DNA of 37,548 nucleotides from a virus (taxonomy: Duplodnaviria > Caudoviricetes), in IMG/VR virus record IMGVR_UViG_3300051213_000590, positions 1-37,548 of that record. One strand, written 5' to 3'. This document shows positions 388-37,548 of this stretch, piece after piece. Under the pieces are notes generated by a model. That model made no database searches, was not told the DNA's origin, and was given only the letters and a program-made list of their open reading frames with translations. Each line of letters opens with the position of its first letter. Position 1 is the first letter of the stretch. The translations under genes and the position numbers were made by a program.

Positions 388-425
388 ACACACACCAAAC
401 GCCGATGGGAGGCGATATTTGCTGT

Positions 426-2502: not shown

Positions 2503-4207
2503 CCTCACCGTGGTGAATAGGATGTACGACTATGTCGAAGACATCCTAGATGGTAAAATAGTTGCAGGGAAGTATACGAAGTTGGCTTGCCAGCGATTCG
2601 TTGACGATATCTCCTCTGATCAATTTGAGTTCGACGTAGAGTCGGCGGCGCGGTACATCACCTTTATAGAGAAGGTATGCATCCATACGAGGGGTGAACA
2701 CGGTAAACCGTTCATCCTTTCGCCGTGGCAGGTCTTTTTCGTGGGTCAGCTGTTCGGATGGAAGCGTAAGGGCGACCTCTCGAAGAGGAGGTTCACTACG
2801 GCCCATCTGTTCGTCGGGAGGAAGAACGGCAAGTCGCAGCTGGCGGCAGCGATCATCCTGGCTATGGCTGTGCTCGATGACGACGGGGCTCCCCAGTTCG
2901 TCACGGCGGCCACCAAAAGAGACCAGGCGAAGGAGGTTTTCGACGAGATACGCCGTATAGTGAAGGCTTCGGCCCCTTTGAACAAGCGTTTTTCGGTAAA
3001 CAGGAACGAGATCCTTTCGCCCCGCGAGGGTATAATTAAGCCCCTCTCTTCTGACGCGAATACGCTCGACGGGTTGAGCTTGAACGTGGGCTGTGTCGAC
3101 GAGATGCACGCCATGAAGAACGGCGACCTGTACCGAGTCCTCTCCTCTTCTATGGGAAGCCGCAAAAATCCGCTTATGTTGGCGATTTCTACGGCTGGAT
3201 TTGTTCTGGACGGCCTTGCCACGGAATTTGTGAAGGGAGGCAAGGCTGTGCTGGACGGGAACGTGGTGAACGACTCTCTGCTGTTTATGATCTACGAGTT
3301 GGACGAGGACGACCAGTGGAGTGACAGCGAGTGCTGGATCAAGGCCAATCCCAATCTGGGGGTTTCGATAAGTGAAGAATGGTTAAAAGACAAGTACGAG
3401 AACGCCAAGATCTACTCCGGCAGGCATATTACCGAGTTTATGGTGAAGCACTGCAACCTATTCGTAGGTTCCGACACGGTGTGGGTTGAGGAGGAGGTGT
3501 GGATGTCTGAGGACAACGTGGAGCCGCTGCCTACCCCGAACAAGCAGGAGGCGTATATCGGCCTCGACCTTTCGGAGACGGACGACATCACGGCCATTGC
3601 CGTTGCTATAGGCGACGTCAACTCGAGGATTTCGATATATATGCAGTATTTCGTGTGCCGTTCTGCTGTAGAAAGGCGCCTAAAGAAGGATGAGACGTCG
3701 ATTTACTCGAGGATTGGCGAGTACGACAACGTCTACGTGATGGACACTAACAGCATCGACTATAACGTGATCCGCAGGAAGATCAGCGGCTACTACGTTA
3801 TGGACGGGGTGACGCACTACGACGAGGACAACATCTCCAACAAGTTCAATCTGAAGTCTGTAGCTTACGACCGGTGGAACAGCTTGAGTTTGATCCGCGA
3901 CCTGGAAGGCGACGGGGTGGTTTGCTCCCCTTATGGACAGGGATACGCTTCTCTCTCGTTCCCTTCTAAGACGTTAGAGAAGCTGGCGAGGGACGGGAAG
4001 CTACAGCACGGGGGCGACGAGGTGCTTCGGTGGATGATGAGCAACGTAAAGCTCAGGATGGATCCTTCTGGCAATATAAAGCCAGATAAGGAGAAAAGTG
4101 GCGATAAAATTGACGGGGTTGTGGCTGCTGTTATGAGTATAGGAGAGATGTTGTCTTATACTGAGGAAGATGATAGTGCGTTCGAACCCTTCTTCACTGT
4201 AGTTTGA
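2489..4207 (+). CDS. terL: Terminase large subunit (Terminase_1, HK97/cos type)
   Basis: LSPWQ, Walker A VGRKNGKS, Walker B VDEMH, ISTAG, nuclease GLDLS..DDIT, AYDRWN, KIDGVVA. ATG 2489 is preferred over the track start at 2444. Confidence 0.97.
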   Translation: MSSLDLTVVNRMYDYVEDILDGKIVAGKYTKLACQRFVDDISSDQFEFDVESAARYITFIEKVCIHTRGEHGKPFILSPWQVFFVGQLFGWKRKGDLSKRRFTTAHLFVGRKNGKSQLAAAIILAMAVLDDDGAPQFVTAATKRDQAKEVFDEIRRIVKASAPLNKRFSVNRNEILSPREGIIKPLSSDANTLDGLSLNVGCVDEMHAMKNGDLYRVLSSSMGSRKNPLMLAISTAGFVLDGLATEFVKGGKAVLDGNVVNDSLLFMIYELDEDDQWSDSECWIKANPNLGVSISEEWLKDKYENAKIYSGRHITEFMVKHCNLFVGSDTVWVEEEVWMSEDNVEPLPTPNKQEAYIGLDLSETDDITAIAVAIGDVNSRISIYMQYFVCRSAVERRLKKDETSIYSRIGEYDNVYVMDTNSIDYNVIRRKISGYYVMDGVTHYDEDNISNKFNLKSVAYDRWNSLSLIRDLEGDGVVCSPYGQGYASLSFPSKTLEKLARDGKLQHGGDEVLRWMMSNVKLRMDPSGNIKPDKEKSGDKIDGVVAAVMSIGEMLSYTEEDDSAFEPFFTVV

Positions 4208-22415: not shown

Positions 22416-22642
22416 AGCCGCTTGACATTGCGGCTCTTTTAGGCAAGCTAGACCTTACCGAAGTCTTTAAGACCAAAGGCGACCTCAAACGGTGGTCAGC
22501 CAAAAGGACGATAGGGGGGCTTATAGCTGTTACCGCTTGCAACGATATCGTCTTCAACGGAATCACGTGGCCAGCTGTCGCGCTGTGCCTCGTGGCCATA
22601 ACCCCCCTTTGCCTATCGTTTATGGAGCAAGAGCGTGAGTGA
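22412..22642 (+). CDS. Small two-TM membrane protein (holin-like)
   Basis: GTG start overlapping the previous TGA; KRWSAKRTIGGLI followed by hydrophobic segments. This is the 3' part of track ORF 22205-22642. Confidence 0.65.
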   Translation: MKPLDIAALLGKLDLTEVFKTKGDLKRWSAKRTIGGLIAVTACNDIVFNGITWPAVALCLVAITPLCLSFMEQERE

Positions 22643-23738
22643 TCCTCGCGATTTGGCCCCTTTGGGGGTGGTGTACAAAGGCTTCCATAGTCCTTGGGGC
22701 GTGTTGAAATCCCATTTTGTGATGCCAAGAGTCAGCGGGCGATAAAGACCGCATAGACTCTACGCATACACTCATATAGTCCTTCGCTACCTTGTGGTGG
22801 ACGTGATGGGTGTAGATATACTTGTGCTGGCAAGCCGACCACGCATCGGGAGCTTCGTGGGCCATCAAGAGCGGCAGGTTGGCCGTTCTAGCCCCGTCTC
22901 CGTGCGTGAATCCAATCAAGTTAGTGTCGAAGTTGATGTACTTCCTGTGCGAAGGCGACACATCGCACGTAAAAGTGTCTACCTTATGGAACCACGAAGA
23001 CACGACGTCGGCAAGGAAATATCCCGACATATAATCGTGATTTGAGGGGCAGTAGACGAAGTGAACGGGGGCGAGTGATAGTAGGTGCTCAACCATGCCG
23101 ATATATAGGCTCTTTGCGGCCTCAAATGCCTCGAACCACATACCGTCTGTATCCTGGGGGACGCCCTTTGTAGTAGTCCTCCTCGTGTTGTCGGTGTGGA
23201 GGATGTCATTACCACCCACAAACACGATCTTAGAGATGGGATATACCGAAGCCGCTGAGGTGAGCTGGTAGATACATTCTATGCAGGCGTCTACGGCTTC
23301 TATGATGTTGTAGGAAGAACCGCCTGTCTCCGTAGTAGAAACGTACTTTCCAATATGCACATCGGCGGGGTTGATGATTAGGAGGCAGCCCTCCTCGCCG
23401 TAGTCTATAGGCTCAGGGAACTTGTAGTCGTAGGAGTAGTTCTTTACGTCATCAACGATCCGCTTGGCAACCTCTTCCATAGACACCTTATTCGTGGCGA
23501 ATATGGAATAGGACTTGCCCTTATGCCAATAGTAGGAGATATTCTCTACTGGGATGCCCTGCTCATCGGCGTACTTCTCGAGGTTGGAGTCGATGTTTCT
23601 GGATAGCTTCCTGCGGAGAGCGTCGTTATACTCTATATTGTACTCCTCCGAGATTATCTTGGCGACCTTTGCCTTCGCCATACCCATTCTGTAAAGCTCT
23701 ATAGCCCTACGTATGTACTCGTTAGTCCGTCCTCTCAT
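22620..23738 (-). CDS. Calcineurin-like metallophosphoesterase with N-terminal HTH-like region
   Basis: ADVHIGK, GNDILHTD, SNHD, FTHGD, HHVHH motifs. Confidence 0.88.
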   Translation of the reverse strand: MRGRTNEYIRRAIELYRMGMAKAKVAKIISEEYNIEYNDALRRKLSRNIDSNLEKYADEQGIPVENISYYWHKGKSYSIFATNKVSMEEVAKRIVDDVKNYSYDYKFPEPIDYGEEGCLLIINPADVHIGKYVSTTETGGSSYNIIEAVDACIECIYQLTSAASVYPISKIVFVGGNDILHTDNTRRTTTKGVPQDTDGMWFEAFEAAKSLYIGMVEHLLSLAPVHFVYCPSNHDYMSGYFLADVVSSWFHKVDTFTCDVSPSHRKYINFDTNLIGFTHGDGARTANLPLLMAHEAPDAWSACQHKYIYTHHVHHKVAKDYMSVCVESMRSLSPADSWHHKMGFQHAPRTMEAFVHHPQRGQIARITHALAP

Positions 23739-24270
23739 GGATGTTGTATTTGTCTAGGATGTCTAAAACGCTGACTTTGGAGTTATAGTCGTGGATGACA
23801 TTGGCTAAACAATACATAGGCGGAGCAACAGAGGGGGTGAGCTTGTAGTTCGAAAGCCCATTGATGTCTCTCATCTTGTGGGGGATGTTCCTCGATGCCT
23901 TGTAGAGCATGGCGTCCTCTAACGCGGAAGGGTACGAGCCCCTATCGATAAAGAATGAATTCATACCATAATAAGTCTCCGCGATGTGCCTATAACACTC
24001 CATCATGTCGTAAATATCGGAATCTAAGGACGTTTCCCAAACAGAAACCACCGTCTTTCCCATATTCCGAGCCTCGAAGTAGTGTGTGGCGTCAGAAATC
24101 AGCTTCATAGGAAGGTAGCAATACCGGCGTAGAAACATCGCCATCGCCGTCCTGTACTTCGACTTGCGAGGACTAAAAGACTCATCCTCGTTGCACATAT
24201 CTTTTACCAGCTCGTATACGGCATCTACTTCTAGTGGCTTAAATGCCTGTATCTTATCTAAGTGATTCAT
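23722..24270 (-). CDS. Hypothetical protein, possible DnaA domain IV-like HTH
   Basis: RKSKYRTAMAMFLRRYCYLPMKLISD weakly resembles the DnaA C-terminal helices. Confidence 0.5.
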   Translation of the reverse strand: MNHLDKIQAFKPLEVDAVYELVKDMCNEDESFSPRKSKYRTAMAMFLRRYCYLPMKLISDATHYFEARNMGKTVVSVWETSLDSDIYDMMECYRHIAETYYGMNSFFIDRGSYPSALEDAMLYKASRNIPHKMRDINGLSNYKLTPSVAPPMYCLANVIHDYNSKVSVLDILDKYNIHERTD

Positions 24271-25706
24271 TTACTTGTTCCTGTGATAAAGAAAAACATC
24301 TCGGTATAGGCTTCTTTGTCTACTACCTTAAACAGGTAGGTGTGCTTCCTTTTGCCGGCCGGGTCTTTTGGGATGCCGTGGCTCTCACACTTACCCTTAA
24401 ACGTCCTCATAGAACCCGTCTGGTTGCCGTTCTTTACGCAGAACTGAGCATAGCCAGAATATAGGCGCTCTTGGTGGATCCACTCGCAGTCGGAGTCGTT
24501 CCTGTTGCCTACCTCGAGACCTGCGGCCCCCAAGAAAGAGAGGAACACATCCCCATCATGCCGGAAGTCGTCCAAGATGGTTGCCAGCTTAGATGGCCTT
24601 ACCATCTTTCCGTACGTGTTCTGCATGGTCACAAAGCAGCGGATCATATCGAAAAGCATCTCCTTCTGCTCTATGGGGTTCATAAGCTTCTCGCTGATGA
24701 AGGGGTCGCGCTCGCTCTCGGGGATGGCGTTCAGGAATTGTATGATGTCGATCCTCCTCGAGATACCGCTATCGCCCAAGGCGTGGGTAAAGCCGAACTC
24801 GTTCGAAGCGACGATCAGGGAGGCCCTCGGGACGAAATACTCGACCTCTTTGTACAGCCTGCGCCCGGAGATCTCTTCTTTCGAGACGATCTGCTTCAGC
24901 ACGTCCTTGTTGCCTAGGTTCCCCGAGGCGTCACCGCAGATACACAGTATGTGATTGGCAAGGTCGATCCTATAGCGTGACTCGTCCTTCGTAAGGTTGG
25001 ACAGGTCGTCTACACGGCATACGTTGCGCTTACCCACCACGTTCACCACGGCATCGATCAGCGTGCTCTTTCCGCTCGCTGCCACACCCATCAAGATGAG
25101 CATCCTTTGGCTTTGGAGAGGATCTCCAGCCAGAGAGTTCGCAAGCGAAGCCAAGGCGTAGTTACGCATCACCTCGTCCGGGATGGCCTTTTCGATAAAG
25201 TTCTTCCATACCGTGCCCTCTTCCCGCTCTCCCATATACTTGAAGGGAAGGCAGTAGGTGAAGACGTTGGTAGGGTCGTGAAACTCCATAAACACCATAG
25301 AATCTCTGTTAATCATCAGAGACCCGTCTATGAAGTTGAGTCCTCGGGGGTTCGTGTTGACGTTCGTGCCCCATCGGTCAGAGCAGACCGAAAGGCACTT
25401 CTCTACAGCACGTACGAAGTCCCCGTCTATGGAAAGGGAGATAGGGCATCCTAAGCGATCGAGAGAAGCCTCTATAAGGTCGTAGATGCGCCCAGGTTCA
25501 TAGAAACACCCATTCCATATATGCACAACCTGGCCTATGATAAGTATAGGCATGGCGCAGTCGTTCGCACTGTAGTTGATGAGGGAGGCCACAGCAGAAG
25601 GCATAGCCTTCGCTCCGACCTTCCCCTCTCCAACCAAAGTGACAATCGTTTTGCCGTCTAGTTTAGTTATCTTTTCTAGGATCGAGTTCACGAATCTTGA
25701 GCTCAA
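24267..25706 (-). CDS. D5/P4-alpha-like SF3 helicase lacking an N-terminal primase domain
   Basis: D5_N-like LNFIDG...HDP...T, Walker A GVAASGKST, LKQIVS.E.ISGRRLYK, IVASN, GISRR, C-terminal winged helix LY..Y..FC..NG. Confidence 0.88.
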   Translation of the reverse strand: MSSRFVNSILEKITKLDGKTIVTLVGEGKVGAKAMPSAVASLINYSANDCAMPILIIGQVVHIWNGCFYEPGRIYDLIEASLDRLGCPISLSIDGDFVRAVEKCLSVCSDRWGTNVNTNPRGLNFIDGSLMINRDSMVFMEFHDPTNVFTYCLPFKYMGEREEGTVWKNFIEKAIPDEVMRNYALASLANSLAGDPLQSQRMLILMGVAASGKSTLIDAVVNVVGKRNVCRVDDLSNLTKDESRYRIDLANHILCICGDASGNLGNKDVLKQIVSKEEISGRRLYKEVEYFVPRASLIVASNEFGFTHALGDSGISRRIDIIQFLNAIPESERDPFISEKLMNPIEQKEMLFDMIRCFVTMQNTYGKMVRPSKLATILDDFRHDGDVFLSFLGAAGLEVGNRNDSDCEWIHQERLYSGYAQFCVKNGNQTGSMRTFKGKCESHGIPKDPAGKRKHTYLFKVVDKEAYTEMFFFITGTSK

Positions 25707-28023: not shown

Positions 28024-28269
28024 TTACTCCCGAGTTTGGCTAGTCTGATCAAAAAGATCAAATTGATCACCAATCTCCCTTAATGCACCTCCTAAAATCT
28101 TTGCAAGATTTCTAACTGCCTCAAGTTCAAGAGACTCTAACCATCGATCTTGTACTGCTACGGGACAATCCTCAAAACAAGTGGGTTGTTTTTTCTCTTC
28201 ATCTTCAAACTTGTGCAAGATGTACACTCCGCTTAAGTTCCTGCGTTTTAAATCATCCATAGTATCCAT
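28024..28269 (-). CDS. Hypothetical protein
   Basis: ORF with RNLSGVY...PTCFEDC. Confidence 0.6.
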   Translation of the reverse strand: MDTMDDLKRRNLSGVYILHKFEDEEKKQPTCFEDCPVAVQDRWLESLELEAVRNLAKILGGALREIGDQFDLFDQTSQTRE

Positions 28270-28276
28270 CGCTTTT

Positions 28277-28471
28277 TCATTTCTTGTTTTTGGTCATTAG
28301 AATCCACTCTACAGCCATTTTGGCGTCCAATAATCCATCTAGGCGCCAACTCATCATTTCGCGGTACTCGTAGTCATCCTCGCTCTGCTCCTTTTTTGCG
28401 CGTGTCTCAATGCACAGCGCGTTAATTTCGCGCCAGGCGCGGTACAGAGCTTTGTAATCTCCTAGTTTCAT
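28277..28471 (-). CDS. Hypothetical protein
   Basis: Packed ORF downstream of the tRNA-like cluster. Confidence 0.55.
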   Translation of the reverse strand: MKLGDYKALYRAWREINALCIETRAKKEQSEDDYEYREMMSWRLDGLLDAKMAVEWILMTKNKK

Positions 28472-28485
28472 TTGTGGGGGTTTAG

Positions 28486-28587
28486 TAGTCAGGGCAGGAT
28501 TCGAACCTGCAATGTGGGCTCCGTAATGAGGGTCGTACCATTTCGACTTACCGAACTTGAGTCCGTTTACCTATCCACTACCTGACT
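28486..28587 (-). ncRNA. tRNA-like RNA with an expanded, non-canonical central region
   Basis: Acceptor AGTCAGG/CCTGACT-A, D-loop-like GGATAGGTAAAC, T-arm GCAGG-TTCGAAT-CCTGC; 102 nt; no standard anticodon arm. Confidence 0.7.
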
Positions 28588-28686
28588 AACGCTGTCTTTC
28601 CTGCCGTCATCACTTTTCTTGCAGTGAGCCGTGTTTCCTAGTCTCCAGGAACCAATAGCACCCGTTTATACTCTGGGTACACCGAG

Positions 28687-28763
28687 TGGTGCTCCCTGCT
28701 GGGCTTGAACCAGCGACCAGCGGATTATGAGTCCGACGCTCTAACCGACTGAGCTAAGGGAGC
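28687..28763 (-). tRNA. tRNA-CAT, probably Ile2 (lysidine type)
   Basis: GCTCCCTTAGCTCAGTCGGTTAGAGCGTCGGACTCATAATCCGCTGGTCGCTGGTTCAAGCCCAGCAGGGAGCACCA. Full cloverleaf with encoded CCA; resembles E. coli ileX as recalled. Confidence 0.92.
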
Positions 28764-29154
28764 GAGGAACCCTCGAGCGGATCATATCTAAGATATCATC
28801 CCTATTCTCGATGCCCATAGACACCAAATACTCGTCAAAGTCAGATATCACACAGTCTACGTTGTAGTTCTTGATCGCACGCTGAGCAAGGACGTACATC
28901 TCATGGTAGCCCTTCCAGTAGAGCATATTCGACTCGTGTTTCTTGCGGGCGTAAACCACAGCGTAGTGATCGGTATCGAAGTAGGAGCTGATGGTCACAT
29001 ACGTAAAGTGTCCCACCAAAGCACACATGATAGCAGCGCGAGGCATATACTGCTCTTTCGTCTTGACCCCGTTCTTCCTCTCTATGCCCACCTTGCGGTA
29101 GAAGCTCTCGATGATGGGGCCTAAACTTTCTTTATCCATGATTCTTGATTTCAA
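28741..29154 (-). CDS. DnaA C-terminal (domain IV)-like DNA-binding protein
   Basis: YMPRAAIM...ISSYFDTDHYAVVYARKKH parallels the DnaA IG..F.RDHTTV.HA signature. The 3' end overlaps the tRNA. Confidence 0.6.
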   Translation of the reverse strand: MKSRIMDKESLGPIIESFYRKVGIERKNGVKTKEQYMPRAAIMCALVGHFTYVTISSYFDTDHYAVVYARKKHESNMLYWKGYHEMYVLAQRAIKNYNVDCVISDFDEYLVSMGIENRDDILDMIRSRVPRSLSSVG

Positions 29155-29353
29155 ATTCTTGAACTAAAATCTCGCCGTCAGCAGACCTGATCATATACAC
29201 TATGTCTCGAAGGCGGTATACAAGTGCCGTAACTATGTAAGGGGTGGCGTCTTCGTCAACAACATGACATACTATATCTCCTATTTCGAACTTTGGTTCC
29301 TGATAAATACGCCGTCTACCGTTTTTCCAGTTCTCGAAGCGATTTCTTTCCAT
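29132..29353 (-). CDS. Hypothetical protein (KFEIGD.V SH3-like start)
   Basis: PKFEIGDIV motif; start uncertain. Confidence 0.55.
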   Translation of the reverse strand: MERNRFENWKNGRRRIYQEPKFEIGDIVCHVVDEDATPYIVTALVYRLRDIVYMIRSADGEILVQEFEIKNHG

Positions 29354-29595
29354 GCTTTCTCTAAGGCTTCATCAGGTTCATATCCCAATTGGTAAGACAA
29401 AATGATTAAGGTCACGAAGCTGTCGCCCAATGCATCCAACAGCTCGTCTTCGCCCTTCTTCTTGGAAAGGCAGCTCGCAAGCTCTCCCACCTCCTCCACC
29501 ACCTTCAACATCTGAGACTTGGCGTTAGAAGGTGCCAAAAGGTCTCTTTCTTGAGCCCAGTCGCGGATAAACAACTGCAAGTTATTCCATCTCAT
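29281..29595 (-). CDS. MazG-like nucleotide pyrophosphohydrolase
   Basis: WAQERDL, QMLKVVEEVGELA, DALGD..VTLII, EIASRTGKTVDGVF. Confidence 0.9.
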   Translation of the reverse strand: MRWNNLQLFIRDWAQERDLLAPSNAKSQMLKVVEEVGELASCLSKKKGEDELLDALGDSFVTLIILSYQLGYEPDEALEKAWKEIASRTGKTVDGVFIRNQSSK

Positions 29596-29974
29596 CTTCA
29601 GAGTAGATATTGAGTTTGTACAGGTCGCTTACCTTCAGGACGATACGAGCCAAGGCCCGCTTCTCCGCCATAGCGACGGGGTAAGAGTTTTTGGTGTTCG
29701 CTGGCGAAGATTCGCCAAAAGTGACGATATATTGACCGTTTTCTTTGTGCCTGGCCTCAGCACGGACACAGTAGCAACTTTTTTCTACGTTCGTAAATTC
29801 TCGACACGCCTCAAGGTTGATATCGTACGTCTCAATCACCTTGGCCTGGATCCTCTCTACGCCGCTCCTCGTGATCACCACGAAGCCCTGTGGAGCCTTC
29901 CAGAAGTCGTCTTTCGTAAGGTTGTACTTGGCAGCCAGCTCGCGGAACTTCTGCGCTTGCGATTCTTTAACCAT
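29582..29974 (-). CDS. Putative single-strand annealing protein (Rad52/ERF/RecT-like fold)
   Basis: TFGE...N.YPVAMAEKRALAR.VLK...IYSEDE pattern. Confidence 0.55.
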   Translation of the reverse strand: MVKESQAQKFRELAAKYNLTKDDFWKAPQGFVVITRSGVERIQAKVIETYDINLEACREFTNVEKSCYCVRAEARHKENGQYIVTFGESSPANTKNSYPVAMAEKRALARIVLKVSDLYKLNIYSEDEME

Positions 29975-30200
29975 TGATCAGTTGTTTGTAAGCCCTCTCG
30001 AGCTTGTATTTCAATTCTTCGTTCTCCCTCTTTAAGTCAGAGCACATACCACTCAAAGTATGTACCGCCGTAGCGGCATTCATCAGGTCATTTCTCAGAT
30101 CCATCCACGCCTCTTTTTTCTCGCCGCTCAATCCCGTCGACTGAATCGAAGCCAGATAGGCCGTTGCCGTGAGCTTCGTAATGAGTTGATCCACGTTCAT
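29967..30200 (-). CDS. Hypothetical coiled-coil protein
   Basis: Packed ORF. Confidence 0.55.
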   Translation of the reverse strand: MNVDQLITKLTATAYLASIQSTGLSGEKKEAWMDLRNDLMNAATAVHTLSGMCSDLKRENEELKYKLERAYKQLING

Positions 30201-30387
30201 AGTTATCGATTAGGTATTGGATATAGGTCATAGCTTTCTTGAGGTCTTCCACGCCTCCTTTATCGCGCCAGCGGCTCACATACTTGATGACGTTGCCCTC
30301 GCAGAAGGGGATGTCATTCTTGAAGATGAATTCCGTCGGCTGGATAGCCATCTTGGAATAGTGCTTAGGAGAAAGTCCATTTTTCAT
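30088..30387 (-). CDS. DUF3310 (SaV-like) protein
   Basis: PKHY...IQP.EFI...FCEGNVIKYVSRWRDKGGVEDLKKA..Y. Confidence 0.88.
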   Translation of the reverse strand: MKNGLSPKHYSKMAIQPTEFIFKNDIPFCEGNVIKYVSRWRDKGGVEDLKKAMTYIQYLIDNYERGSTHYEAHGNGLSGFDSVDGIERREKRGVDGSEK

Positions 30388-30823
30388 TGAGCATCTTGCT
30401 TTCGTAGTACCGGAATACAGGGTGAGAGAATTTTACAGAGACGAATGGGGCGGAACCGCGTGGCTTGAGGAGCATCACCTTCTCTACCTTGCCGGTATAG
30501 ACCACGTCGCAGGGCTCGGTGGTTTCTTCCGCTGTGCAAGAGTCTTCGATGATCTTGTTGGCGATCTGCTCGGCCTGGCGGATATCGAGCAGCGAAGGCA
30601 GCCACTCGGGAGAGTAGAACGAGATTCTTGAGAGCAGGTCGCGGCCATAATGCTCGGCCCACTCCTCGTCGATGGTCTCGTTGTCTTCGATGTAGTCTAT
30701 TGTGTCCTCAAGCCGCCACTTGACGAAAGAGTCCTCGAAGGCTTTAGGCTGGATCTTGCAGTGAGCACGGATGACGCCGCGCTCTCCCAACAACACGAAG
30801 GCAAGTTTTTCAATGAAGGTCAT
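30365..30823 (-). CDS. Hypothetical protein
   Basis: ATG 30823 overlaps the upstream stop (track start 30874). Confidence 0.6.
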   Translation of the reverse strand: MTFIEKLAFVLLGERGVIRAHCKIQPKAFEDSFVKWRLEDTIDYIEDNETIDEEWAEHYGRDLLSRISFYSPEWLPSLLDIRQAEQIANKIIEDSCTAEETTEPCDVVYTGKVEKVMLLKPRGSAPFVSVKFSHPVFRYYESKMLNEKWTFS

Positions 30824-31101
30824 GACAACCACTTTAAGTGTTCCTCTAAATTGTCCACATCCAAACGGATGCACAAGTCTAACAACTTTTCTCTACTCAA
30901 GTCAAGGTCGGCGTAAACTTTTTCTTGGTAGTAGGTGGATTCCCTCACCTCCAAGAGCAGCCTGCCCTTGATCATCCACGCCAGGTGAGCGCAGCAGTCT
31001 TCTACCATAGTTTTCTGGCCCATAAACTGGCGGCCTTTGGCATTCTTGAGGTCATAAAACAACCTCATCATCTGGTTGGCGGAAGGGATCAGTTGAGACA
31101 T
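30820..31101 (-). CDS. Hypothetical protein
   Basis: Packed ORF. Confidence 0.6.
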   Translation of the reverse strand: MSQLIPSANQMMRLFYDLKNAKGRQFMGQKTMVEDCCAHLAWMIKGRLLLEVRESTYYQEKVYADLDLSREKLLDLCIRLDVDNLEEHLKWLS

Positions 31102-31292
31102 GGTTTTTGGGATGTGAGTTCTTCCATAGCAGTTATTTTGTGGGCCTTGTTGTAGATCCTCAAGACTTCTACACAGTCTTTGACGGCCCTCACGGCTTCT
31201 TGCAGACCCTCGCTGGGGGCCACGATAGACAGGAACATAAGGTTCACCGCCAGGTCTTGCAGGTCTTCTTCAGTCCTCTTGAAGTTCTTCAT
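31089..31292 (-). CDS. Hypothetical protein
   Basis: MKNFKRTEEDL... start is preferred over the track start at 31463. Confidence 0.55.
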   Translation of the reverse strand: MKNFKRTEEDLQDLAVNLMFLSIVAPSEGLQEAVRAVKDCVEVLRIYNKAHKITAMEELTSQKPCLN

Positions 31293-31593
31293 CGTACATA
31301 TCGTTAAGGGATTCTGTAAAGCGCACAGCGAAGTTGTAGGCAGATGCCTGATCGTTAAAGATCTGGACACCGCGTTTCTTGTAGTCTTCCTCCCAGAGGT
31401 AGACCGTAGCGACGATGCCTTCGGGTTCTTGGGTGATACACACCACGTAGGGGTTGCAGTCAAAGCCGCTGATCTTGGCGCTTACATGGCCCAAGCCCTC
31501 TTCGTAGACGTCGCGCTCGAGATAGGCGCTCCAGCTCTCGCTCTTGGTCTTGTAGACCACCTTCGAGTCTTCAATCCTTACGTAGTATTTCAT
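31270..31593 (-). CDS. Hypothetical protein
   Basis: MKYYVRIEDS... start. Confidence 0.6.
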   Translation of the reverse strand: MKYYVRIEDSKVVYKTKSESWSAYLERDVYEEGLGHVSAKISGFDCNPYVVCITQEPEGIVATVYLWEEDYKKRGVQIFNDQASAYNFAVRFTESLNDMYDEELQED

Positions 31594-31643
31594 AGGAGAT
31601 TTTTGTGAAAATAGAGTTGCCAAAGTAGTCCTCCTCTGAGAAC

Positions 31644-31826
31644 TTATAGCCTTCCATATCTTTCTTGGAAAAGCCTTCGCATAGAACGGTCTGTTTGATC
31701 TTCTTCACTCCAGTGCTGGTATGGGTAGATGACATTGAAGATTTCTTCCAGTTCAGGAGAAAGCACAGGCGTGCGCTTCCTCTTTTGCTCTAGATAGAGC
31801 TGCTTATAGGTCTTATTTTCTTCCAT
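31644..31826 (-). CDS. Hypothetical protein
   Basis: MEENKTYKQL... start. Confidence 0.5.
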   Translation of the reverse strand: MEENKTYKQLYLEQKRKRTPVLSPELEEIFNVIYPYQHWSEEDQTDRSMRRLFQERYGRL

Positions 31827-32110
31827 TGTAGAGGATTTGTCGTAAAGTAGTGGTCGCATGGCGCAGTATAGTGCCTTTCTTGATCGCCCCAGTATATTGA
31901 GCCTACATACACGCGCTGGCCCCAGGTCTCGCCGTCGTCAGACACCTCTACCACGTCGCCGACCTTGAAGCCGTCGTCAAACATCTCCTCAGCCATTCTT
32001 GCAACTCCCAACAACACGACAGCGGCGTGCCTGTCTTTTTCGTTGCCGTTCCTGATGGCTTTCGCCCGCTTGCGAAGCCTCTCGATGAATTGCTCTTCTC
32101 TTTTTGTCAT
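31790..32110 (-). CDS. Hypothetical protein (FKVGDVVEV SH3-like domain)
   Basis: ATG 32110 lies next to the upstream stop codon. Confidence 0.55.
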   Translation of the reverse strand: MTKREEQFIERLRKRAKAIRNGNEKDRHAAVVLLGVARMAEEMFDDGFKVGDVVEVSDDGETWGQRVYVGSIYWGDQERHYTAPCDHYFTTNPLQWKKIRPISSSI

Positions 32111-32322
32111 AACGCTAATTTTTGGCGTACAAAGCTTTCGATTTCTTCTAACCACTCGCCGTCCCAGATCCTTCCGTTGTGGATATTCTCAAATTCTTCT
32201 GCCCATTCGATAGCGAATTCCGGGTGAAGAGCAGATGAGATATTGTAACCCTGTCTATCAATTTCTGAGGCCACAGCAACAAGGGTCTCTAGATACGATC
32301 GAAGTCCGTTGGGGTAGTTCAT
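32107..32322 (-). CDS. Hypothetical protein
   Basis: Packed ORF with acidic C-terminus. Confidence 0.6.
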   Translation of the reverse strand: MNYPNGLRSYLETLVAVASEIDRQGYNISSALHPEFAIEWAEEFENIHNGRIWDGEWLEEIESFVRQKLAL

Positions 32323-32489
32323 GATTTCTTGATGAATCGGTAGGTGATAGGGCCAAAGTCTTCTATAGTCACGTAGTGGTAAATCCTGTCTTTGAATTCT
32401 CCTGAGAAGAGGAACTCAGCAGGAACCCATTCTTGGTGCTCCCAGTCGCGAACCAACACCGTCTCGCCTCGGGTGAACTCAGTATGCAT
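32319..32489 (-). CDS. Hypothetical 56-aa protein
   Basis: Translated by hand: MHTEFTRGETVLVRDWEHQEW...FIKKS; ATGA overlap. Confidence 0.55.
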   Translation of the reverse strand: MHTEFTRGETVLVRDWEHQEWVPAEFLFSGEFKDRIYHYVTIEDFGPITYRFIKKS

Positions 32490-32853
32490 AGAGGTGATTT
32501 TTTACTGAAACAACTTTCTTGTAGGTCACGCCGTCGATGACTTCGCCGTTGAAGTCTACCCAGTTGGGCTGGCGCTTGGGGTTGTAAGAGATAGCGCCTT
32601 CTTCTACAGGGTAGAGCCTGCTGAAGTTGCAGGTAGACACCTCCACTTTCTTGCAGGAAACCCAAGCACAGACCTCCTTGTGAGCACCCTCGTGTGTTTT
32701 CTTGGCCGTAGACTTGTGGTTTACGAGTCTTGCGTCATACATAACCAGCTGTGCGTCCATAGGATTGACGTACGTGACGTCATTTCCTCGGCGAATCTGC
32801 CAGTGCATATAGTGCTCTCCTGGCGCTAAGTGGAACCTTACCTTAATCATCAC
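32479..32853 (-). CDS. Conserved phage hypothetical protein
   Basis: KVRFHL..G..YM.WQ, HKEVCAWV, ISYNP pattern. Confidence 0.65.
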   Translation of the reverse strand: MMIKVRFHLAPGEHYMHWQIRRGNDVTYVNPMDAQLVMYDARLVNHKSTAKKTHEGAHKEVCAWVSCKKVEVSTCNFSRLYPVEEGAISYNPKRQPNWVDFNGEVIDGVTYKKVVSVKNHLYAY

Positions 32854-33080
32854 TTCAGTCTGTTTTTCTTGGAGTCATAAGAGCCCCATGATTTTGCAAC
32901 GGGTGAACGATTTACAATCTTGGAGAAGACGACTACGATGTCTCCGTCTTGCAGTTCTGAGACGTTATACCATCCAGCTTTTTCGTCAAACAAAGAGTAG
33001 TTGTACCCGTAGATCTGGATTCCTGAAGCGAGCCAGCTGTTCACTTCTTTCTTGCTGTTTGCCTGCACGTAGATTTTCAT
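32850..33080 (-). CDS. Hypothetical protein
   Basis: ATGA-coupled ORF. Confidence 0.6.
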   Translation of the reverse strand: MKIYVQANSKKEVNSWLASGIQIYGYNYSLFDEKAGWYNVSELQDGDIVVVFSKIVNRSPVAKSWGSYDSKKNRLK

Positions 33081-33286
33081 AGATTCGTAAGGTCGATTAA
33101 AATGTCTCCCGAAGGGCTCAGGTATTCTTGTTCAACATAGAATCTTGCAGTCCTCTGATAGTGGCCTTGCAAAGCCTTGAGCACATCATTCTTGATGAGG
33201 TAGCTAAACAGCTGGAGCGTTTCTTGCTCCGTAAGCTCACCGTTCTCGTAGGCGAAGATGAGGTAGAGTTCTTGGTGTAGGTTCAT
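33077..33286 (-). CDS. Hypothetical early protein
   Basis: YENGEL...LF..LI...LQGHY.RTA pattern. Confidence 0.65.
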   Translation of the reverse strand: MNLHQELYLIFAYENGELTEQETLQLFSYLIKNDVLKALQGHYQRTARFYVEQEYLSPSGDILIDLTNL

Positions 33287-33543
33287 AGCGCAGTAACGAT
33301 TACATCGATGTCATAACAGTCTGCGTGCAGGTCGCAAACTTCGCACCTGGAGAATGAAGAGTCAAGCCCCGTAGAGAAAGAGAACGTAAATTTTTCGTGG
33401 TACACCGAAATTCTTGAATCCAACTCCCTCACGAATTCTTGGACTCGATCGATTTGTTCTTGGTTCAAGCCCGAGTTGTCGTCGTTGATAAAAGCTGGCA
33501 GGAAAGAACCTGCGATGCTCAAGGTGTCGAAGATGTAAGTCAT
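33283..33543 (-). CDS. Hypothetical early protein (CxxC)
   Basis: INDDNSGL...FSRCEVC. Confidence 0.6.
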   Translation of the reverse strand: MTYIFDTLSIAGSFLPAFINDDNSGLNQEQIDRVQEFVRELDSRISVYHEKFTFSFSTGLDSSFSRCEVCDLHADCYDIDVIVTAL

Positions 33544-33671
33544 TTTTTCTTGTATTCAGTGATTCCGTCGTGCTCAACAACAACGTACGAGCATTCTTGC
33601 ACGTAGATGACTTCATCTTTTGCGATGAAGTAGGCGTGACCGTCTTGGTCGAAGTAGAGAGGGTAGCTCAT
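33540..33671 (-). CDS. Hypothetical 43-aa protein
   Basis: Translated by hand: MSYPLYFDQDGHAYF...EYKKK; ATGA overlaps at both ends. Confidence 0.55.
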   Translation of the reverse strand: MSYPLYFDQDGHAYFIAKDEVIYVQECSYVVVEHDGITEYKKK

Positions 33672-33868
33672 AAGAGGTAGTATGAATACAGCCAGCCGCA
33701 GTCGTCGTCGTATAGGTCGCTTTCTTGCACAGGAGAGCCGACCAATTCTTGCAGACGCTTCACGTCTACTCGTTTCCAGTACCCGAACCGCAGGTACGTA
33801 GCATCGCCTCCCAAAGTCTTGCAGACCTGGAACTCGCCTAATTCTTGGGTGATAGCTTCAGTCTTCAT
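33668..33868 (-). CDS. Hypothetical protein
   Basis: MKTEAITQE... start is preferred over the track start at 33994. Confidence 0.55.
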   Translation of the reverse strand: MKTEAITQELGEFQVCKTLGGDATYLRFGYWKRVDVKRLQELVGSPVQESDLYDDDCGWLYSYYLL

Positions 33869-34112
33869 CGAATGTAGTCCAGCAAAAGAGTAAGTCTTCT
33901 TCGAAAGCTTCTTCCAGGTCTTCGACCTTGTAGTATGTGCGGAGGATATACAGCAAGTTCTCCTCGTTTGCAGCGTAGAACATACCAGACTCAATCAGGT
34001 AGCCCTCGCTGATTTCTTCGCCAGTCACAGAGTCTTGTCGCATTTCTTGATGATTAAGAACAACATCATTAACAGTAAGAGGACAGAGTAAGCCACTATC
34101 ATAGCTCGACAA
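33858..34112 (-). CDS. Hypothetical acidic early protein
   Basis: RQDSVTGE...EGY...WT.F pattern; very acidic. Confidence 0.6.
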   Translation of the reverse strand: MSSYDSGLLCPLTVNDVVLNHQEMRQDSVTGEEISEGYLIESGMFYAANEENLLYILRTYYKVEDLEEAFEEDLLFCWTTFDED

Positions 34113-34860
34113 AGAATCTTGTCGTCAGACCGAGAGCCTCGCGCTCGCGAGTCGTACGCTTGACTCTAAGTCCTGCGATATACGCTCCAGTCTCAGGAGC
34201 ACCCAACTTGCGGTCGAGGAATCTTGCGTCTGTCTCGTCAGCGTCGAAGACAGGAAGCCCGCGCCATTCTTGAGGCAGACTTGCATTCTTGCGGACTCGG
34301 CCAGTCTTTGAGTCGACATCGGCGAATGGAACCGCGATGCCCAGGTTATACTTGGTCGCTACGTCGAGCAATTCTTGCCAGTCTAATTCTTCGGAGTAGC
34401 TGAGCGTCAGGTGATAGTTGGGGTACTTCTCGAGCAGCTTGACACGGTTGAGTACCTTCGTGTAGTCGTAGAACTGAACGTCGCTGAATTCTTGGAGGAT
34501 AGACTTGAACAGCTCGGGCGATAGGTCGCTGGTGCCGTTGAGGCGGATAGCCAAAGTGTCTCCGTATTTCTTGCGGGCAGACTTGATTTCTTTTCGTAGC
34601 TGCTCAATGAAGTCTAGACGGTTAGAGTAGAAGTAGTTCGTGCGCCCAATTCTTGCCTTGTGGATCTTGGTGTCGAACTTGGCACGCCCTGCGAAGTGCA
34701 GGCACGTAGCCCTGCAGCCCTCTGAACTTTTTGGACATACATTCTTGCCGCTCGAGTCGTATGGCGACAGGTACACAATTCCTGTGTTGACGTCTACCTT
34801 GACGCCCTTGATAGTCTTGGCCGAAGAGTTTACGCCCAAGATATAGCTGAATTCTTTCAT
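34099..34860 (-). CDS. Gp88-like protein (radical-SAM-like Cys motif)
   Basis: NVCP..SEGCRATCL..AGR, IRLNGTSDL, VQFYDYTK, NYHLTLS.SE, D.D.TD.RFLD. Confidence 0.8.
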   Translation of the reverse strand: MKEFSYILGVNSSAKTIKGVKVDVNTGIVYLSPYDSSGKNVCPKSSEGCRATCLHFAGRAKFDTKIHKARIGRTNYFYSNRLDFIEQLRKEIKSARKKYGDTLAIRLNGTSDLSPELFKSILQEFSDVQFYDYTKVLNRVKLLEKYPNYHLTLSYSEELDWQELLDVATKYNLGIAVPFADVDSKTGRVRKNASLPQEWRGLPVFDADETDARFLDRKLGAPETGAYIAGLRVKRTTREREALGLTTRFFVEL

Positions 34861-35099
34861 GACAAAGAGTTTGCGATTTCGTTCCAGTCAACTTCTTCCA
34901 GGTAGGCAAGAGCCAATTCTTTGGCAAGTCCATCCGAATTCTTGTATACCAAACACCGAGCATATTCGTACAGCTCGTTTGCCCTATCGTGGCTGTCGAG
35001 TTCTTGCCACCCCCACACGACTTCTTGAATCTCGAGGTCTGAAAACACTTCGAGGTTCACTTTCCAAGTGGCGAAATTCGCCCATCCGTTGTATCTCAT
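34857..35099 (-). CDS. Conserved phage early protein
   Basis: YNGWANFATW.V.L...VDW.EIA motif. Confidence 0.7.
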   Translation of the reverse strand: MRYNGWANFATWKVNLEVFSDLEIQEVVWGWQELDSHDRANELYEYARCLVYKNSDGLAKELALAYLEEVDWNEIANSLS

Positions 35100-35100
35100 C

Positions 35101-35277
35101 TCAGTATTTTGTAACGGTTAGACACACATTTTCTTGCTCGTCAATCCAGCCGGTGATTCGGCAAGTCTTGCGACGAATTACACTGCGACCATTCTTGCGA
35201 ACCTCCCACAGGAAGGCGTCAGCGTTCAGCCCCCATACAGAGAACAGACCGCGAATTCTTGATTCGTTAGTTTTCAT
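35101..35277 (-). CDS. Hypothetical 58-aa protein
   Basis: Translated by hand: MKTNESRIRGLFSVW...VTKY. Confidence 0.55.
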   Translation of the reverse strand: MKTNESRIRGLFSVWGLNADAFLWEVRKNGRSVIRRKTCRITGWIDEQENVCLTVTKY

Positions 35278-35456
35278 TTCTTGTCTACTTTTTGCCAGCC
35301 ATAGCCCGCGTAATATCCTGGACGATTGTTGTCATATACCTCAAAGTATTTTTTGAGAGTCTTGAATTTCTTGGTGCGCTCAGGGATGGACACAATACTG
35401 CCCACGAAGAACACGGTTTTCCTAGACCTTTGGTCTTTCAAGTAGTACTCAATCAT
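35274..35456 (-). CDS. Hypothetical protein
   Basis: ATGA-coupled ORF. Confidence 0.55.
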   Translation of the reverse strand: MIEYYLKDQRSRKTVFFVGSIVSIPERTKKFKTLKKYFEVYDNNRPGYYAGYGWQKVDKK

Positions 35457-35538
35457 TTTTGATAGCCTCGATTAGTTGATACGCTGTGAACACGCCCACA
35501 ATTGTGAGCACGAGAACGATGACGATTGAACCGAACAT
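35449..35538 (-). CDS. 29-aa single-TM peptide
   Basis: MFGSIVIVLVLTIVGVFTAYQLIEAIKND; A-rich start context. Confidence 0.45.
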   Translation of the reverse strand: MFGSIVIVLVLTIVGVFTAYQLIEAIKND

Positions 35539-35549
35539 TTCTTTTTTTT

Positions 35550-35870
35550 TTACAGCCACCGAGGGCTAACAAAACGGTCTACACTTGAATTCTTGGATTC
35601 TTGGATTCTTGCAGGCTTAACCTTCACAATCCTCCTTTGTATTGAGCTACGACCCACCGAAGAGGCTCGAAACATAGATCCTCCTGAGCCTACTGCATGG
35701 AATGAACGTGCGCCACCGCCATGCACGCCGCCACCTTTGCCGCCACCGCCGCCCACTATGAACGTAGGACGCCCCGTGCAGCTATCGAAGTTCGCGAACT
35801 GAGCAGAGCACACACCGCCCCCAATTATTGAGAGCAGCACAACAAAACACATGACTTTTGAATTCATCAT
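35550..35870 (-). CDS. Putative secreted Gly-rich basic protein
   Basis: Signal-peptide-like N-terminus with cleavage VCSA|Q, a Gly-rich tract and an Arg/Lys-rich tail. Confidence 0.55.
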   Translation of the reverse strand: MMNSKVMCFVVLLSIIGGGVCSAQFANFDSCTGRPTFIVGGGGGKGGGVHGGGARSFHAVGSGGSMFRASSVGRSSIQRRIVKVKPARIQESKNSSVDRFVSPRWL

Positions 35871-35920
35871 TAACGGAATTAGTTAAACGGTCATGAGCCA
35901 CCCTAATAGGCTGGCGAATT

Positions 35921-35970
35921 TGGGCCTGTGGTGGGATTCGAACCCACCTAGCACACCTAGTGCACAGGCC
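35921..35970 (-). ncRNA. Mini tRNA mimic 1 (acceptor stem plus T-arm only)
   Basis: GGCCTGTG-CACTAGGTGTGCTAG-GTGGG-TTCGAAT-CCCAC-CACAGGCC-CA. Confidence 0.7.
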
Positions 35971-36119
35971 ACCCCCAAAGAGGTTGATACCTACAGGTAG
36001 CCCCATAGGTTCAAAACACATAGTACATACACCTTTGCAGTACGCTACACACCCCACCAAACAGCCAGCACACCCCACAAAAAATGAGCACGAAGGAGCC
36101 GAAGAAAATAGAAGGGCCT

Positions 36120-36193
36120 CGCACGTGTGTACGTGTGCGCGTGTACGTGTGTACGTGTGTGCGCGTGTACGTGTGCGCGTGTGTGCGCGTGTG
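36120..36193. repeat. 74-bp perfect alternating purine-pyrimidine tract (Z-DNA prone)
   Basis: cgcacgtgtgtacgtgtgcgcgtg...gtg with no break in alternation. Confidence 0.9.
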
Positions 36194-36478
36194 AGCGTCT
36201 GCAATTTCGCCCCCCTGCACCTGCACAAACGTTCCCGGGAACGTGTGAGGGGGCCGCGCGAATATTACTAGCCGCGCCGGTCACGTTGACCTTTCCGCCC
36301 GCCCCGCAGGGTTGGGCAGATAGGTTAACTTTCACCAAATTTCGCGTCTGTGGCCTCTTGTTATTGCTTAAGGTGTGGACGCTCACCTATATACGTCCAT
36401 GCATAACGCAGCCCGCGAAATTTCCGCTAATCGTTAACCCGATATCTCAATGAACGCAACGTCGAGGATAAAATAAAT

Positions 36479-36527
36479 GAGCACACGTAGGAATCGAACC
36501 TACCGGGGCCGCCGTTCGGCGTGTGCT
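36479..36527 (-). ncRNA. Mini tRNA mimic 2 (acceptor stem plus T-arm only)
   Basis: AGCACAC-GCCGAACGGCGGCCCCG-GTAGG-TTCGATT-CCTAC-GTGTGCT-C. Confidence 0.7.
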
Positions 36528-36537
36528 GGTGCGGAAC

Positions 36538-36927
36538 TTATTCCGCCGTATCGCAAATAATTTGATACAAGTCGTATGCACTCATGATAGATGCGTGAAT
36601 CGATTCGGCCGTATGAACGAATGAGGTAGTAAATGCCCGCGCCGTATCTCCTCCCGCTACTGCAGAAAAATTGATATCGGCCGAATTAAACACGCTAACG
36701 CCGTTAACCTCCACACGAATCGTGTGCATAGCCGTCAGGCTCCAACTTGTTTTCGATGTAGCCTTCGCCGCGCGCATACCTAGCGCGAATTTGGCGAAAC
36801 GATTCGCGGCAATTGCTACGGCGGTGCGTTCACTTACGGCGCGCTCGACGTCGACTGCAAGGTGGCGAACAATTGTTCCGCGCTTCGCATGGCAAATTGC
36901 CATTACTTCGATTTGGGTAGTTTCCAT
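36538..36927 (-). CDS. Hypothetical protein, probable first early gene
   Basis: 129-aa ORF downstream of the TACCTTTG box. Confidence 0.7.
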   Translation of the reverse strand: METTQIEVMAICHAKRGTIVRHLAVDVERAVSERTAVAIAANRFAKFALGMRAAKATSKTSWSLTAMHTIRVEVNGVSVFNSADINFSAVAGGDTARAFTTSFVHTAESIHASIMSAYDLYQIICDTAE

Positions 36928-37014
36928 AACTGAAAAAATTTAAGGGTTTGTTATTCATTGTTATTCGGTCGGCGGGTTGCATCCGTTGACGCCCCCCCTT
37001 CGTTCCGACCTTGA

Positions 37015-37022
37015 CAAAGGTA
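37015..37022 (-). promoter_or_regulatory. Bacteroidota-type -7 promoter box (TACCTTTG), candidate early promoter
   Basis: Exact TAnnTTTG on -, about 90 nt upstream of ORF 36927. No -33 TTTG at canonical spacing. Confidence 0.55.
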
Positions 37023-37304
37023 CGAACAACTTTCGCCGATTGATTCACTCGGATGCAAAAAAATTCGAGAAAATAGCCGCTATATATATGTAGACTTTGC
37101 CACCAGCACCGAAAAAATAGCGGACGCGCGTCCCATATGGGGAAAAATTAGCGCCGATTCGATGCGCCAAACATCGAACGAAGGAACGCCACACACCCAA
37201 ACAGTTTGGTACTAGTAATTACGCTAAATGCAAATAACTAAAACAAAACGGTCGGATGTTGTTACTAATTAAATGCAAGTAATTCGAATGTATAAACTAG
37301 TGCC

Positions 37305-37457
37305 ATCGACGAAACAAGGGAAAAAATTATACACCCCCGAATTTTATACTACCGACGAAACAGCGGAAAAATTTATACACCCAAAATTTATACTATCGAC
37401 GAAAGGGGGGAAAACATTATACACCCCGAACGTATAAATCCGTGAAACATCGACGAA
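37305..37457. repeat. Three ~45-bp imperfect tandem repeats plus a partial fourth
   Basis: A(T/C)CGACGAAA...GGAAAA..TTATACACCC...TATA units start at 37305, 37351, 37395; ATCGACGAA again at 37449. Confidence 0.85.
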
Positions 37458-37548
37458 TGCGTGAAACATACGTGGAAAATACGTTGCAAACGGCTGAAAC
37501 CCCTGTATTTGCTGGCACTCCAGGGGTAGGGGGGTGCCAAAATTATAC

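Follow-up and report, generated by a model that had tools for sequence, protein, structure and literature searches.

Why should a virus carry the same short word dozens of times on one strand of one end of its genome? The question is raised by the viral record IMGVR_UViG_3300051213_000590 (Duplodnaviria; Caudoviricetes), a complete virus record whose 37,548 nucleotides form the window analysed here, and whose rightmost early genes are interspersed with the word TCTTG on the top strand (CAAGA in the sense of these leftward genes). A sequence-only reading of the window had listed 20 copies of ATTCTTG in 32429-35611, and every listed position proved exact, with no reversed copy in this span. Its estimate of about 50 TCTTG cores against about two in the opposite orientation agreed with our counts of 50 and 2 on the top strand, and TTCTTG occurs 37 times forward and never reversed. 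The supposed rarity of the word by chance was likewise borne out: on both strands of the whole window, 28 ATTCTTG/CAAGAAT matches compare with 6.6 expected, a number reached in none of 100 dinucleotide shuffles. As had also been described, the word occupies all three reading frames (CAAGAA 15, 3, and 14 times by frame in the 11 rightmost early genes) and ends in a triple tandem with 8-bp spacing at 35589-35611 of the top strand, which marks the right border of the zone. Thinning toward the left was confirmed as well, but the zone reaches leftward to about 28 kb; top-strand TCTTG occurs at 5-16 per kb, rising rightward, in 28148-35611, with 32429-35611 as its densest part. In the terminal leader beyond it (35612-37548) a single TCTTG remains, at 36356. 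We conclude that the word is a real, selected, strand-polar DNA signal that is conserved across a phage family.

The selected unit is the 5-mer TCTTG/CAAGA plus a preferred extra T, and not the 7-mer ATTCTTG. Letters six and seven of the word differ among relatives, and a position matrix revealed an invariant CAAGA core on the early-gene strand with A preferred next and unrelated flanks. The C before AAGAA is strongly selected in the phage, where it precedes 38 of 49 AAGAA. Helical spacing between word copies was looked for in the window and not found, and the triple tandem yielded no RNA structure on folding (z 0.15). Promoter mimicry was considered and rejected: the top-strand word resembles TAnnTTTG, which we take to be the Bacteroidota -7 promoter consensus, yet shows no preference for its first T.

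Codon use, amino-acid composition, or local repeats might in principle give rise to such a zone neutrally, as the small early proteins contain many Lys, Gln, and Glu residues and dicodon-preserving shuffles regain most CAAGA (70 of 77). However, the excess survived synonymous, protein-preserving shuffles, both in the 11 rightmost early genes (CAAGA 44 vs. 18.8 expected, with a maximum of 27 in 1,000 shuffles) and in the next 13 (28 vs. 10.8). It also survived dicodon-preserving shuffles of the window's early genes (CAAGAAT 25 vs. 13.1 and CAAGA 77 vs. 70.1, 0 of 300 shuffles in each case), which hold two of three frames fixed by construction and therefore leave only a small margin for CAAGA. 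Nor are all minus-strand genes equally dense, with 11 copies vs. 12.2 expected in the genes at 22.6-28.5 kb. Instead, synonymous choice in the early genes depends on completion of the word: when GA follows, 28 of 29 Gln codons are CAA, against 22 of 58 elsewhere; of the Lys codons flanked by C and A, 39 of 45 are AAG, against 62 of 138 at other places; and 10 of 12 four-fold codons preceding AGA end in A, against 89 of 441 of the rest. Late genes, and relatives without a zone, show this dependence weakly or not at all. The word is thus written through synonymous codon choice in all three frames. In addition, non-coding gaps within the zone carry it at the density of the zone itself (30 sites in 2,504 bp, seven genomes). 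A neutral origin, which we regard as extremely improbable, is already contradicted by these codon-context and gap results, by the unrelated flanks, and by a purge of the word elsewhere.

This purge, which affects the same orientation outside the zone, is a new element that the sequence-only reading had overlooked, as it had the five-letter core. The late genes of the ten zone-bearing genomes of the family contain 74 top-strand TCTTG where 179.9 are expected, with no reduction of the reverse orientation (357 vs. 321.5); those of the four other family genomes contain 145 top-strand copies vs. 111.4 expected. Ranking of all 1,024 five-mers was based on six less redundant genomes (G000, G001, G003, G009, G011, and G012), with the relatives' genes called by a simple open reading frame (ORF) picker. 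Top-strand TCTTG is the most enriched five-mer in their early genes (297 vs. 149.9) and the most depleted one both in rightward late genes (46 vs. 116.8; TTCTTG 3 vs. 33.5) and in the leftward genes left of the primase gene (12 vs. 33.0), with normal counts of the reverse orientation in late genes (240 vs. 210.9). In the window itself, the rightward late arm (405-22642, plus strand) has 14 top-strand TCTTG vs. 24 expected and one TTCTTG vs. 6.8, and the reverse orientation is normal. The earlier statement that the motif is nearly absent from the structural half hence applies to the top-strand orientation, which falls below expectation, and not to CAAGA in the late-gene sense (45 vs. 37.3). Among the window's leftward genes left of the primase (22620-24270, minus strand), three copies vs. 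4.8 expected are too few to judge, and the purge is visible there only when pooled over the family.

Because the same orientation is purged from rightward and leftward genes alike, the loss follows the DNA strand and not the message, which favours a polarity of DNA over an mRNA code. Elements of the RegB-like or stoperator-like type are expected to follow the sense strand and to be avoided in late sense. CAAGA is, in contrast, normal in late sense and depleted in the sense of the leftward genes left of the primase, and we therefore rejected an early-shut-off site and a general mRNA element; for the same reason, binding sites for a plain RNA-binding regulator, one of the candidates proposed from the letters, are disfavoured. 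Avoidance of restriction-modification sites, including the one-strand patterns of type III systems, predicts a site that is rare throughout the genome, and was rejected for a word that is the top-enriched five-mer of the early genes. Other words are missing from the window's late genes (405-22642) as expected for restriction-site avoidance, namely GGACC (1 vs. 16) and CTGCAG, GTTAAC, and AACGTT (all absent). Overall, the signal is probably read on DNA by some directional machine.

The zone is carried by ten of the 14 family genomes (G000-G005 and G009-G012), whereas G006-G008 are without it and G013 has lost most of the early arm and shows no purge. Since G000/G002, G003/G004/G005, and G010/G011 are close kin, the ten represent about six independent lineages. 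In the seven genomes with an intact right end, word density is 0-0.3 per kb in the final kilobase, peaks at 11-14 per kb 2-4 kb from the end, and falls below 2 per kb from 10 kb and to 0-1.1 per kb past 14 kb. The zone begins 1.2-2.2 kb inside the right end. Most early genes are not common to different lineages, and the word has thus been rewritten into different genes. Positions recur in part among homologous genes and differ in others, while density and polarity are conserved. In four of five independent pairs of close relatives, substitution rates within sites were about half of those outside or less (13/385 vs. 391/6,836; 4/314 vs. 276/7,039; 14/310 vs. 752/6,962; and 11/155 vs. 752/4,560); in the fifth, which was the most distant, the two rates were equal (30/110 vs. 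811/2,820). As the rate within sites was reduced in one control pair of late genes, too (9/159 vs. 1,404/14,143), these rates are supporting evidence only. Together with the codon-context tests, the family comparison backs the original proposal of a selected second code near one genome end. A separate word triple, with 7-bp spacing, lies near the zone border of G003.

Which machine might read the word depends on the ends of the genome and on the host. Judged by gene matches, the window is a lambda/HK97-type siphophage with the terminase at the left: the genes for an HNH protein and the small and large terminase (405-4207, plus strand) define the lambda-type map, and these, together with portal, head, tail, and lysis genes, run rightward up to 22.6 kb. 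Beyond this point, leftward genes include an exonuclease-like gene, a D5-type primase/helicase (24267-25691, minus strand), which forms the left zone edge in most relatives, and many small early genes. Ten of the 13 family genomes with an HNH match start 245-423 bp upstream of the HNH gene, and the remaining three continue straight across the right-left junction. These contig starts and junction-spanning records suggest a unit-length, cos-type genome in lambda orientation, whose right end is placed on the basis of the terminase at the left. The host is probably a member of the Bacteroidota, because 49 of the 52 cultured-phage records matching a 130-aa core protein are Flavobacterium or Tenacibaculum phages, and because a TAnnTTTG-type promoter-like site lies at 37015-37022 (minus strand). 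Public runs containing the stretch were mostly freshwater metagenomes, with no RNA run among the matches listed; a strain from runs X5/X6 differs from the window by whole-gene insertions and deletions. Searches for further host clues gave no relative of a 101-aa protein, which had no match in a fold search either, and no host names for the methyltransferase. The terminase search returned nine loci, of which a single close one sits in a Parvibaculum bin and was taken as a binned phage contig, and the phage tRNA-Met reached at best 91% identity in 401 genomes.

With this map, the word lies on the top strand and clusters toward the presumed right end, which is the layout of Chi-rich phages. As far as the accessible text of Zheng et al. 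2025 (PMC12315714) describes them, phage LLS of E. coli carries 20 of 23 Chi sites on the top strand near the right end, and phage MD8 of P. aeruginosa has 32 Chi vs. 0 by strand; in both, the right end is open to RecBCD once terminase holds the left one. By analogy, the word resembles a terminal Chi cluster in layout, sharing with LLS and MD8 the terminase-left map, the top strand, the broad clustering toward the right end, and independence of frame and gene. The sections of PMC2887965 available to us report a 5-bp AddAB Chi in the studied case and state that B. fragilis uses AddAB, its Chi being unknown in 2010; TCTTG would match this type of Chi in length and asymmetry, and its likely host belongs to the same phylum. 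Our best reading is therefore that a host helicase-nuclease of the AddAB type enters at the right end and is stopped by top-strand TCTTG in the manner of Chi; we give this reading a probability of about 35%. In such a scheme, the right end would be a free cos end that leaves the capsid first and stays open while terminase holds the left end, as in lambda. AddAB of a Bacteroidota host would enter there, move leftward, and read the word on the strand whose 3' end was entered, whereupon it would stop degrading within the small early genes and pass a single-stranded tail to recombination. Why the left arm is purged would then be a matter of guesswork; a stalled enzyme or crossovers in the structural arm might be costly. 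If the word is Chi, the so far unknown Chi of a host from the Bacteroidota could be read off the phage ends, and the purge would reveal a cost of Chi undescribed in the literature covered.

Several observations weigh against the Chi reading. Compared with the sites of LLS and MD8, as far as these are described, the word is a 5-mer matching no known Chi and, at 12-14 per kb, is far denser, the same orientation is purged elsewhere, and the last 1-2 kb are empty. No part of the Chi biology covered predicts a purge of the active orientation, and an end-entering nuclease would meet the word-poor leader first (in the final 1.1 kb, one site vs. 3.8 expected, seven genomes pooled); the left-arm purge and the word-free last 1-2 kb are both left unexplained. 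Moreover, Chi-rich lambdoid phages mostly have no recombination (Rec) module of their own according to the available text of PMC12315714, whereas the window has an exonuclease-like gene and likely its own annealase. The candidate is the 130-aa core protein (29582-29974, minus strand), a predicted Rad52/Sak/Red-beta-like annealase by a weak fold match: its predicted fold is confident (predicted local distance difference test, pLDDT, 93.8) and best matches RAD52 (Z 7.4, root-mean-square deviation 3.8, 106 aligned), with a double-stranded RNA-binding domain tied at Z 7.3, Red-beta, Sak, and Mgm101 lower, and weak RecT matches in 7 of 76 homologues. The evidence thus leans toward a phage Rec module being present. 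The 130-aa protein occurs in genomes with the zone and in zone-less ones alike. Finally, the host and the physical end are identified only indirectly.

A Chi of the host would be expected to leave its mark on the host chromosome, and a replichore skew in Bacteroidota had indeed been suggested as a check. We examined 24 stretches of 60-300 kb from 22 Bacteroidota genomes with gene direction controlled; the genomes were mostly picked for a rhodopsin gene, one stretch overlaps another, and some strand assignments are weak. The outcome gave Chi no clear support: TCTTG ranked among the ten most leading-strand-biased five-mers in one of the 24 stretches, in a sample that may not include the true host, and in G285 its skew was opposite (z -2.9). 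In most host genes tested, CAAGA is the commoner sense form, by which the active form would come to lie on the wrong strand. The single biased stretch, G206:C13:200001-300000 (L321-L325), had z 3.3 and rank 3 and was not replicated. Ratios of the pattern to its reversed control ranged from below 1 to about 4 in sets of 151 and 41 genomes and were inseparable from Gln-Glu codon use, and an all-plus run of matches in four Bacteroidota genomes was discarded as an artefact, the listed density being about half the genome mean. The available part of a study on Chi (10.1101/2021.07.08.451572) attributes the E. coli Chi skew to gene orientation, an effect that our control for gene direction takes out, and notes that computational Chi prediction can fail. 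Thus, of the candidates first named, a Chi-like polar signal is the closest known fit by geometry, with no clear backing from host skew.

The same host data bear on the loading sites of FtsK-type translocases, the FtsK-orienting polar sequences (KOPS). A host translocase might use CAAGA(A) on the bottom strand, in its leftward reading, as a loading site and draw in the DNA that enters first. The direction fits, tandem triples stand at the zone border in G000 and G003, and AAGAA heads the leading-strand five-mers of G285 and G076. The word also shares with KOPS and the SpoIIIE recognition sequences (SRS), as covered in part of the literature, a short A-rich polar form with an AAGAA core and a density gradient toward one locus; according to the available text of PMC3384302, KOPS vary between families and that of L. 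lactis is the A-rich GAAGAAG. Yet KOPS logic predicts loss of the opposing orientation, and in the phage it is the co-oriented word that is purged outside the zone, the opposing one being untouched. In addition, the phage word is under strong selection for its leading C, and G-rich words lead the leading-strand ranking in many host stretches. We consider this reading rather improbable.

Transcription offers a different account. Since the purge follows the DNA strand, it excludes early-shut-off sites and a general mRNA element, but leaves room for a leftward-transcription signal that fades before the late arm. CAAGA, in the non-template strand or the nascent RNA, might keep the early RNA polymerase going, by antitermination or in polymerase-driven DNA entry, and be thinned or purged where leftward transcription should stop before running antisense into the late arm. 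One step would thereby cover both gradient and purge. Moreover, promoter-like sites precede the zone, whose start in G000, G002, G010, and G012 coincides with, or closely follows, hairpins that resemble tRNA halves. However, the 22-kb late operon gains no word in its own sense, its slight excess (357 vs. 321.5) being the same as in zone-less genomes (178 vs. 157.7). The first leftward gene, a 129-aa ORF in the terminal leader (36538-36927, minus strand) that is 51% conserved in G002, contains no copy, and known antitermination sites are few per operon. This account is therefore a tentative one and, on balance, unlikely. The hairpins themselves (35923-35970 and 36480-36527, minus strand) consist of an acceptor-like stem, a short side arm, and a T-loop arm, fold with z -3.5 and z -1.7, respectively, and are possible RNA-processing sites. 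Related T-loop elements exist in G002, G006, G010 (three near-identical copies), and G012, often at the zone start, and an Rfam search of the terminal leader including the hairpins returned no family.

Loss of the zone points to another class of reader. In a primase tree of 27 loci, from which duplicates, distant matches, and loci with little upstream DNA had been dropped, 12 loci have both the zone and a DUF3310 gene and 15 have neither within the fetched flanks, two of the latter with less than 1.5 kb of upstream DNA. The 15 zone-less loci form one clade (support 100/100) and thus reflect a single evolutionary event. The DUF3310 gene (30088-30387, minus strand; present in 12 of 12 zone loci and 0 of 15 zone-less ones) is a weak candidate reader. 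The word could be loaded on or nicked by a phage-encoded directional DNA protein, such as the HNH nickase, the primase-helicase, DUF3310, or an ejected virion protein, whose action would be wanted in the right arm, for recombination-dependent replication or for coating first-entering DNA, and harmful in the first-packaged arm. Such confined action would explain enrichment and purge together; it is in line with the lack of a clear host skew, with the joint loss of zone and DUF3310 on one branch, and with the weaker, different words of some members of this branch, in which TCTCGA or top-strand TCGAG is enriched early and low late (TCTCGA forward vs. reversed 21 vs. 2 in L364 and 19 vs. 5 in L375). 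Cluster A mycobacteriophages that were isolated on or infect M. smegmatis likewise differ in word. Against it, the argument rests on one evolutionary event, and G012 keeps TCTTG though its small terminase and primase sit nearer the zone-less clade. In the late arm, G012 has a 397-aa gene, the last of the tail module, in common with G003 and G011 (90-96%), and its pattern fits a tracking of the host by the word, without proving it. We view a phage-encoded reader as possible, though doubtful. The TCGAG/TCTCGA enrichment in the early arms of G006-G008, L364, and L375 is weaker and less polar than the TCTTG zone, and the primase matches in G009:C1:30579-32006 and G015:C1:8701-10128 each contain one TGA.

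To see how far such zones extend, we turned to other phages via the GP88-family gene inside the dense zone (34099-34860, minus strand), which marks a small-gene early region also found in cluster A mycobacteriophages. None of 80 loci around GP88-family genes had a CAAGA zone, but some had one-way words of their own, with raw forward vs. reverse counts of 22 vs. 0 for CTCGT in L023 and 17 vs. 0 for TCTGCC in L038; lineage-specific one-way words were noted near GP88 genes of unrelated phages in L022-L024, L038, L010, L020, L050, L051, L018, L080, L055, L043, and L015. Two cultured cluster A phages, Nyxis (L280, record about 45-50 kb) and Twister (L282, right arm), have right-arm, top-strand ATGCCT/TGCCT zones. 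In the right-arm early genes of Nyxis, TGCCT occurs 32 times vs. 9.6 under synonymous shuffles, and Twister has 16 ATGCCT vs. 2 reversed. Map, strand, and early right arm are thus the same as in the window, whereas the word differs, no purge is detectable in the late genes of Nyxis (TGCCT 11 vs. 11.5), and the system is not a characterised one. The ATGCCT word was not clearly common to L5, Bxb1, and DarthPhader, and no comparable zone was found in Tenacibaculum phage JQ, Flavobacterium phage snork6-1, Caulobacter phage Sansa (50 kb), or HMO-2011 (first 16 kb).

Cluster A phages are better known for stoperators, repressor sites of about 13 bp that are spread across both arms and oriented by the direction of transcription. 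Like these, TCTTG is polar and present in many copies in a phage with the same genome layout; unlike them, it is 5 bp long, lies within genes and in one arm only, and is not enriched in late sense. TGTCAAG, which we take to be a stoperator motif, was observed in the cluster A comparison. Cluster O mycobacteriophages were rejected as carriers of a polar 7-mer, the repeat described in the accessible part of PMC4351075 being a 17-bp palindrome. The sequence-only reading knew of no description of the motif, and we found no paper on the word, its purge, or zones that combine enrichment and purge, in a search confined to openly accessible articles; the broader class of one-strand Chi clusters at the right end has, in contrast, been published (PMC12315714).

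At somewhat less than even odds, phages may carry a class of zonal polar DNA addresses: words of 5-7 letters, specific to a lineage, that are present in a single strand of the arm entering first and removed from that strand in the rest of the genome. Their reader would be directional and distinct from both RecBCD/AddAB and FtsK, for instance a phage or host loader, a nickase, or a polymerase factor. If this class exists, the present family would be its clearest example, its sister clade having lost the word or exchanged it for another, and the cultured cluster A mycobacteriophages would be a bench model. Should the word not be Chi, it would point to a so far undescribed reading of direction early in infection, encoded by phages via synonymous sites. 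In either case, a hidden signal of this kind can be lost when the early regions of phages are recoded or rearranged.

Further repeats were noted at both ends of the window. Ahead of the HNH gene, positions 1-450 contain eleven GGTGA(C/G) repeats in both orientations, which we take to be candidate terminase-binding sites or origin iterons (P4-like); there are 9-12 in G001, G003, and G009 and only 2-3 in G006, G007, G010, G012, and G013. At the right end (37300-37548), GTATAA(A/T)TTT and TCGTCG(A/G)T repeats occur at a spacing of about 40 bp, and similar ATCGACGAA repeats occur in G002-G004 and G009. The triple tandem belongs to a variable insert (35538-36276) that also contains a purine-pyrimidine CA-rich repeat (36120-36190) and G-rich GGCGGTGG-type repeats; in its place, the strain of runs X5/X6 has 139 different letters. 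Beside the tRNA-Met gene, a third tRNA-like gene missed by ARAGORN lies at 28486-28587 on the minus strand (Rfam tRNA, 31 bits).

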